Positions 2,321 to 2,742 of a stretch of DNA of 4,604 nucleotides are shown here, in pieces. Each line of letters begins with the position of its first letter. The first letter of the stretch is position 1. A model generated the notes under the pieces. It saw only the letters and a program-made list of their open reading frames with translations. It had not been told where the DNA came from and did no database searches. Source of the stretch: a virus (Duplodnaviria > Heunggongvirae > Uroviricota > Caudoviricetes); the IMG/VR virus record IMGVR_UViG_2690316347_000014, positions 1-4,604 of that record; one strand, written 5' to 3'. The position numbers and the translations under genes are program-made.

Positions 2321-2742
2321 TCAATGCACTACGACAGAATCGCCGGGCGACCCACCACCGCTGAAATGTGCTTTCCGGTAAACGGCCTGGACAGCATCAT
2401 CATGCGCATCAATTGCCGTACTCAACGCTTCCTGCGCCGCCAGTAATGCACGGCGTTCCAGGGTATCGAAGATACAGAGTCGGTGACGCAGCTCACGCGG
2501 AAGAATTGCCAGAACCGCAGGGATCAGTTTCTGAATTTTTTCCCTTTGCGCTTTCGTTTCACCTTTCAACCAACGGTGATAGATATTCTGCTGATTGTTC
2601 CAGTCCTTGCCTGGTACCAGAGACAATTCGCCGCCCCCCTGCCGCAGATATTCTTCAGTAATTGCGTTAGCGACCCACGCCTGCCCTTTTTCGGCTGCCA
2701 GGGCAACAGCACTGATTCGATGTGCTCATGCCTGATTTTCAT
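2321..2742 (-). pseudogene. ydaT: YdaT-like protein (CII functional analogue of Rac/CP-933P-type prophages), interrupted by a frame change about 12-14 codons after the start
   Basis: ATG at 2742-2740 with a GGAAGGTGA SD overlaps the 3' end of the dicC-like gene and reads MKIRHEHIESVL.., but that frame stops at 2568-2566. The long conserved ORF (..ALAAEKGQAWVANAITEEYLRQGGGELSLVPGKDWNNQQ.. to stop 2323-2321) is in the -1 frame and has no start or SD; first candidate is TTG at 2626. Family assignment is from memory of the YdaT sequence. Confidence 0.6.

Follow-up and report, generated by a model that had tools for sequence, protein, structure and literature searches.

A frameshifted ydaT gene in an IS600-bounded Rac/Qin-type prophage remnant, most probably of Shigella sonnei

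YdaT and related regulators of lambdoid prophages

YdaT proteins consist of an N-terminal POU-like helix-turn-helix (HTH) domain made up of alpha1-alpha5, whose recognition helix is alpha3, and of a long helix alpha6 that builds the tetramer (PMC9986795). [quoted passage not shown] Its expression is toxic via rcsA, a H56A/R57A double mutant no longer binds DNA, and YdaT homologues cross-bind one another's boxes and can activate from them (PMC11879457). The CP-933P homologue of E. coli O157:H7 (PDB 8BT1; also 3C4R) combines a POU-like HTH with a C-terminal helix that forms a four-helix bundle and is described as the equivalent of CII, activating a PRE-like promoter in the reverse direction to boost the repressor (PMC8630535). 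This protein is intact, was reported to be non-toxic, and shares about 30% identity with Rac YdaT according to the published papers. YdaS and YdaT have been argued to be analogues of Cro and CII and not a type II toxin-antitoxin pair (PMC8630535, PMC11879457). In phage lambda, the cII gene lies between cro and the replication genes; its product CII, the published analogue of YdaT, is tetrameric and drives repressor synthesis from a reverse promoter. The likeness to CII is an analogy drawn in the literature and is also reflected in the name of PHROG 163, 'CII-like transcriptional activator'.

A more distant relative, YdfX (96 aa; locus L015, 3347-3637), is found on the Qin prophage of K-12, directly after dicC. 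The literature calls it the Qin homologue of YdaT; the similarity is weak and located around the recognition helix (38% over 29 aa), and the protein was shortened by a history other than the one-base deletion described below.

The 4604-base stretch of DNA analysed here (the window) is an immunity and replication block of a Rac/Qin-type lambdoid prophage and carries a ydaT gene of the same family as the CP-933P gene, from which it is distant in sequence. Its likeness to the Rac locus includes the N-terminus of the protein, MKI(K/R)HEHIESV in both cases, a TGATT-N6-AATCA box overlapping the start, and the gene order (cro-like gene, ydaT, replication gene, ydaV, ydaW). The loci differ in their upstream immunity genes, RacR/YdaS in Rac versus DicA/DicC-like in the window, and in the state of ydaT: unlike the window copy, the Rac gene is undamaged, and its product is an active tetrameric activator and a toxic factor. 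The ydaT of the window takes the position that YdfX has in Qin, and since YdfX is short, YdaT-like, and located after dicC, the DicA/DicC module of K-12 also has a shortened YdaT-family partner. The window copy is very probably a genuine, lineage-specific loss-of-function allele in a decayed, IS600-bounded Rac/Qin-type remnant, most probably from S. sonnei.

Architecture of the remnant and the lesion in ydaT

The features of the window are collected in Table 1. The inverted 74-nt IS600 ends at both edges indicate that 4.4 kb of prophage remain, enclosed by two IS600 copies in opposite orientation. A segment in this arrangement could flip through recombination. The same architecture is found across the whole window in CP044151.1 (L009; 99.8% identity), and HE616528.1 (L007), presumably S. 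sonnei 53G, matches positions 75-4604. The order of cro-like gene, ydaT, replication gene, and dnaC-like gene agrees with Rac and with L001, the closest of the complete E. coli relatives. It also agrees with vB_EcoS-666R9, an isolated temperate phage that carries an intact 423-bp gene annotated as 'activator protein cII'; a cro-like gene precedes it, and a 789-bp O gene and then a dnaC-like gene come after it.

Table 1. Coordinates of the features in the window.
Feature	Position	Strand	Remarks
IS600 end	1-74		Perfect 74-nt inverted repeat with 4531-4604
DUF977/YdaW-like gene	261-683	minus	
DnaC-like/YdaV gene	698-1444	minus	Intact
O-like replication initiator gene	1451-2243	minus	Broken; downstream of ydaT
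ydaT pseudogene	2321-2742	minus	CII-like transcriptional activator; full length except for one missing base
Residual ORF, 101 aa	2321-2626	minus	TTG start at the equivalent of Leu42, in the alpha2-alpha3 loop
Frameshifted ORF, 58 aa	2566-2742	minus	First 13 residues native YdaT, remainder out of frame to TGA
G6 run in ydaT	2634-2639	minus	Second frameshift site in other Shigella loci; intact length in the window
One-base deletion site	between 2704 and 2705	minus	From alignments with L001, L002, L004, L011, L012, L014, L016
DicC/Cro-like gene, 75 aa	2726-2953	minus	Intact; Pfam P22_Cro; 74% identity to K-12 DicC
Candidate YdaT-box core TGATT-N6-AATCA	2733-2748		Perfect match; overlaps the ydaT start codon
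DicA/CI-like repressor gene, 135 aa	3030-3437	plus	Intact; Pfam HTH_3; 62% identity to K-12 DicA
DUF1391 gene		plus	
Truncated rha gene		plus	Joined to the IS600 fragment
IS600 left-end fragment, 290 bp	3807-4097	plus	With a 77-aa orfA remnant; fused to truncated rha
IS600 end	4531-4604		Partner of 1-74

The gene upstream of ydaT encodes a protein of the P22_Cro/DicC type, to be compared with the database label 'toxin YdaT' and the YdaS/YdaT toxin-antitoxin pair. Its end overlaps the start of ydaT by 17 nt, the same overlap as between dicC and ydfX in K-12. Mutually related, operator-like sequences are located on either side of the dicA-like gene (2955-3030 and 3492-3560), with an inverted pair (2990-3005/3509-3524) and a 23-bp tandem repeat (3492-3535) close to this gene; these flanking repeats resemble OR- and OL-type repressor sites.

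Translation of ydaT would begin at the ATG at 2742, which is preceded by the Shine-Dalgarno sequence GGAAGGTGA and starts a frame with 58 sense codons and a TGA stop (2568-2566). The YdaT-homologous body (ALAAEKGQAWVANAITEEYLRQGGG...VVVH*; also ALAAEKGQAWVANAITEEYLRQGGGELSLVPGKDWNNQQNIYHRWLK...VVVH) is encoded in the -1 frame, i.e. the frame beginning at 2740. This frame is open from 2727 to 2321 and offers as candidate starts only TTG 2626, TTG 2569, TTG 2425, and GTG 2329, with no ATG and no GTG ahead of 2329. The initial annotation had described exactly this combination, a strong start on a short frame and a conserved body lacking a start of its own, and had predicted the break at about 2703-2710. 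Alignment to intact relatives places the gap within this interval (Table 1), and exactly one base is missing compared to relatives of 99.2% identity, as expected for a single-base indel.

On the coding strand, the GTG CTG TTA GCC CTG of the intact gene has become GTG CTG TT GCC CTG. The missing base is a T on the plus strand and an A on the coding strand, the third base of the TTA codon for Leu13. The loss of a T had been proposed earlier; this corresponds to codon 13 of K-12 Rac, TTT (Phe), which is probably the reason for the proposal, but the nearest relatives carry A on the coding strand (TTA in L001, L002, L004, L011, L012, and phage L016). When the base is restored, a 140-aa protein results that equals the product of the intact CDS annotated in FDAARGOS_943 (L002; 100% identity) and shows 94% identity with K-12 Rac YdaT over 140 aa. 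Besides the deletion, the ydaT of the window differs from that of L001 by one substitution.

Assignment to the YdaT family is supported at several levels, in agreement with the earlier designation of the gene as ydaT-like. The repaired protein matches Pfam PF06254 (YdaT_toxin; E 5.3e-11, 43.2 bits versus a cut-off of 21) and, with residues 1-125, PHROG 163 (E 6.3e-37), and it can be aligned over its whole length with PDB 8BT1 and 3C4R (phmmer E 2e-6 and 3e-7); in the NCBIfam scan no model matched. Homologues of 136-145 aa are present in Escherichia, Salmonella, Klebsiella, Raoultella, Enterobacter, Lelliottia, Yokenella, and Buttiauxella. In their conserved N-terminal part, the residues M1, I3, H5, H7, A14, G20, A25, I28, Y32, and G36 hardly vary, and entries of about 100 aa are Shigella or partial sequences. 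The recognition-helix residues H56, R57, and W58 (YHRWLK) and the C-terminal oligomerisation helix (about 95-128, ERRALLAAQEALSTAIDAHDDAVQAVY) are encoded in the body frame of the window and align with the homologues and the PDB chains, but they are out of frame with the start. Instead of an uninterrupted ORF of about 136-145 aa including the conserved N-terminal helices, the frame in the window stops after 58 codons, and profile searches with the 58-aa peptide matched no family. The one-base deletion at codon 13 thus makes the locus a pseudogene of the YdaT family and not a functional member.

The candidate YdaT-box at the start codon is a perfect match, compared to 0.23 matches expected per window at up to one mismatch. 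The predicted operator of YdaT is kept although its protein is broken. A consensus scan of 2250-3100 for a sigma-70-like, PRE-like reverse promoter or a terminator gave no hit, a scan that is uninformative for an activator-dependent promoter. Another near-match to the box, CGATTAATTTCAATCA, with one mismatch, is found at 2308-2323 at the ydaT stop codon; it could be due to chance, as two or more hits were obtained in 6 of 200 shuffled sequences.

Recurrent inactivation of ydaT and its probable cause

The closest complete E. coli relatives, FDAARGOS_944 (L001; 99.2%) and FDAARGOS_943 (L002; 99.1%; both over window positions 75-3807), carry an intact 423-bp CDS annotated as 'toxin YdaT family protein'. 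Among the 11 Shigella loci fetched, about five to six, from independent assemblies, show the deletion alone (L003, L006, L007, L009, and L010 by name), and three further ones (L005, L008, and L013) combine it with a G run shortened to G5. Other loci keep the A but have an altered G run, G5 in L004 and G7 in L011 (CP000266.1, which we take to be S. flexneri 5 str. 8401) and L012, and each of these changes truncates the frame after 58-61 codons. The different lesions in different loci indicate that ydaT was broken independently at least twice, probably three times.

The replication gene adjacent to ydaT is also in decay. The intact O-like protein of L001 (262 aa) matches PHROG 2509, replication initiation protein. 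Compared to this gene, the window copy shows a 10-bp deletion at 1778, A8 instead of A6 at 1926-1933 (+2), and an in-frame gain of 12 bp in a (TCTTCC)n repeat. The ydaT lesion had been counted initially as the third single-base loss in the window. For the O-like gene, this description holds only with respect to phase, and for the A8 of the window relative to the A9 of S. sonnei 53G; measured against L001, the changes are the 10-bp deletion and the gain of two bases. Both breaks equal -1 modulo 3, so that a reading based on frame only would see single-base losses. The 10-bp deletion is common to the S. sonnei loci. The A run comprises six bases in intact E. coli, eight in the window and L009, and nine in S. 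sonnei 53G and L003; the difference between 53G and the window points to a run that is still changing within the lineage.

Two types of repeats were observed in this region. The hexanucleotide repeat (TCTTCC)5.5 at 1799-1831 encodes a poly-Glu linker of the O-like protein, and its copy number varies among the window, L001, L002, L003, L007, and L009, always in multiples of 6. Three perfect palindromes, GTAACGC-N5-GCGTTAC (1856-1874, 2065-2083, and 2257-2275), are spaced by about 200 bp just upstream of and inside the O-like gene; according to 200 shuffles, chance would produce none. They could serve as origin iterons or as regulator binding sites.

The most likely cause of the ydaT loss is neutral decay of a defunct prophage. 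Such decay would be sufficient in view of the mutability of homopolymers, the pseudogene load of Shigella, and the parallel decay of the O-like gene and ydaV in these loci; in the window itself, the replication gene next to ydaT is broken as well, and the rest of the prophage was presumably removed by IS600. Shigella accumulates pseudogenes, in prophages and elsewhere, along with the expansion of IS elements. With its IS600 cuts, frameshifted neighbours, and varied ydaT lesions, the remnant fits this pattern, and nothing sets it apart. Alternatively, the loss could have been selected repeatedly, as a pathoadaptive disarming of a toxic, rcsA-activating regulator; the three frameshift alleles (one-base deletion, G5, and G7), which occur in different Shigella loci, all fall within the first 40 codons, and the deletion is missing from 800 matching complete E. 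coli genomes. This explanation runs counter to a statement in the literature, according to which the YdaT locus 'remains unmutated'. Even if taken together with a weaker variant, in which a -1 slip or a TTG start yields a product of altered function, it is considered unlikely, and neutral decay is preferred.

The damaged gene is not the only ydaT in these bacteria. A second, Rac-like copy is present in S. sonnei drafts; its first 273 nt show no damage, after which a scaffold gap follows (L017, CWUF01000056.1, 5001-5273). A full-length protein sharing the first 91 residues of this copy was found on one short contig only. Given this second copy and the cross-binding among homologues, a CII-like function may persist in the cell, supplied in trans. 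In L003 (CXCC01000231.1, 1188-1200), the ydaT with the same one-base deletion has another cro/cI pair as its neighbour, and the YdaT-box marks the point where the similarity to the window stops. Together, L003 and L017 suggest that Shigella genomes contain several ydaT-bearing remnants each, which have recombined with one another or were collapsed during assembly.

Possible products, origin of the allele, and consequences for immunity

Ribosomes starting at the regular ATG would read 13 native and 45 out-of-frame residues before they reach the stop at 2566-2568. The remaining 127 codons, comprising the rest of the POU-like HTH including H56/R57/W58 and the tetramerisation helix, are unreachable from ATG 2742. 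From the weak TTG at 2626, at most a 101-aa fragment without the first helix of the HTH would be produced, and a functional YdaT is not to be expected from this copy.

The 101-aa ORF keeps the recognition helix and the tetramerisation helix, which raises the question of whether it is expressed as a new regulator or as a dominant-negative subunit. The ORF is uninterrupted and shows 100% identity across the S. sonnei, S. flexneri-type, and other Shigella loci, a G-rich stretch is found 8-13 nt ahead of the TTG, and the encoded sequence still matches PHROG 163 and PF06254. The flanks, however, are also about 99% identical, so the identity of the ORF among the loci reflects recent common ancestry and gives no evidence of selection. 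Moreover, alpha1-alpha2 of the DNA-binding domain, including the first HTH helix, are missing, only positions 54-130 of the PHROG 163 profile are covered, and TTG is a weak start with neither an ATG nor a GTG as alternative. As all natural full-length homologues have the conserved N-terminal 40 residues, expression of such a truncated regulator is regarded as very unlikely. TTG 2626 was likewise rejected as the natural start of a short isoform: apart from truncated Shigella and partial entries, none of the homologues across Enterobacteriaceae begins at the equivalent position.

Recoding could restore the frame in a different way. A -1 ribosomal frameshift within 2568-2727 would yield low levels of a near-full-length YdaT (MKIRHEHIESVLLPWQPKK-GQAWVANA...). 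The two frames overlap by about 50 codons, a candidate in-phase heptamer A_AAG_GGC or tetramer A_AAG is located at about 2685-2692, and, judged from the sequence, slipping by -1 right at the deletion codon would give back the wild-type protein. But the downstream RNA is not unusually stable (z = +0.76; 155 of 200 shuffled sequences fold at least as well), the nucleotides of the heptamer are ordinary GAA AAA GGG codons in intact genes, intact relatives are encoded in a single frame and need no frameshift, and other Shigella lineages break ydaT elsewhere. Rescue by recoding is accordingly highly improbable. A programmed -1 frameshift gene of the dnaX/IS3 type was also considered and rejected, because the heptamer is present but a stimulatory structure is absent and the frameshift is not conserved.

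The distribution of the deletion allele bears on its origin. Of 800 complete E. coli genomes matching a 61-nt probe across the site, not one carries the deletion; the best identity, 98.4%, corresponds to one gap. An exact 37-mer of the allele is absent from the GTDB species representatives, a weak test with one genome per species. Exact copies of the residual 101-aa ORF are listed for 1969 blocks of the assembly collection and lie on at least 1000 contigs. The ORF product is the same as Q3Z436_SHISS, named 'putative bacteriophage protein [Shigella sonnei Ss046]', and the 58-aa peptide is annotated as 'Uncharacterised protein [Shigella sonnei]' in S. sonnei records. Single-base indels are the commonest type of assembly error, and the long-read-style assemblies L005, L008, and L013 show extra homopolymer differences in the G run, but the chance that the gene is truly intact in the source organism is practically negligible, since the deletion site (GTT^GCC) lies outside any homopolymer and the identical deletion recurs in many independent assemblies, including complete genomes and the Ss046 protein. 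The deletion allele is thus real and lineage-specific, and most probably belongs to S. sonnei, as judged by cluster names and the presumed identity of HE616528.

For the immunity switch, the initial annotation had expected that a broken CII-like function would lock DicA/DicC, an expectation that published work does not support. A CII-type activator aids the synthesis of the repressor, and both genes of the switch are intact; compared to L001, the DicA-like gene is identical and the DicC-like gene carries one substitution. The CII-type factor of lambda acts in establishing or reinforcing repression and not in maintaining it. As YdaT would likewise reinforce but not maintain repression, its loss would remove a feedback and a toxic output and would not lock the switch. 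Without YdaT, the retained box would no longer act in cis to raise DicA-like repressor synthesis via a PRE-like reverse promoter, and the YdaT-dependent toxicity on derepression would be abolished. By analogy with the described systems, recovery from a derepressed state would become harder. The rightward operon is defunct anyway, given the lesions in its O-like replication gene.

A frameshifted ydaT pseudogene in a decayed remnant is already known in kind and present in published Shigella genomes. For annotation, the locus should be treated as one frameshifted ydaT pseudogene; the 58-aa 'uncharacterised protein' and the 101-aa 'bacteriophage protein' Q3Z436, two overlapping ORFs in public records, should not be kept as genes of their own. 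In the examined Shigella loci, ydaT was lost by at least two, probably three, frameshifts, while the operator, the cro-like gene, and the repressor are intact. If the inactivation of ydaT exceeds the neutral expectation, this would bear on the retention of repressors in cryptic prophages and on the cost of YdaT to the host.
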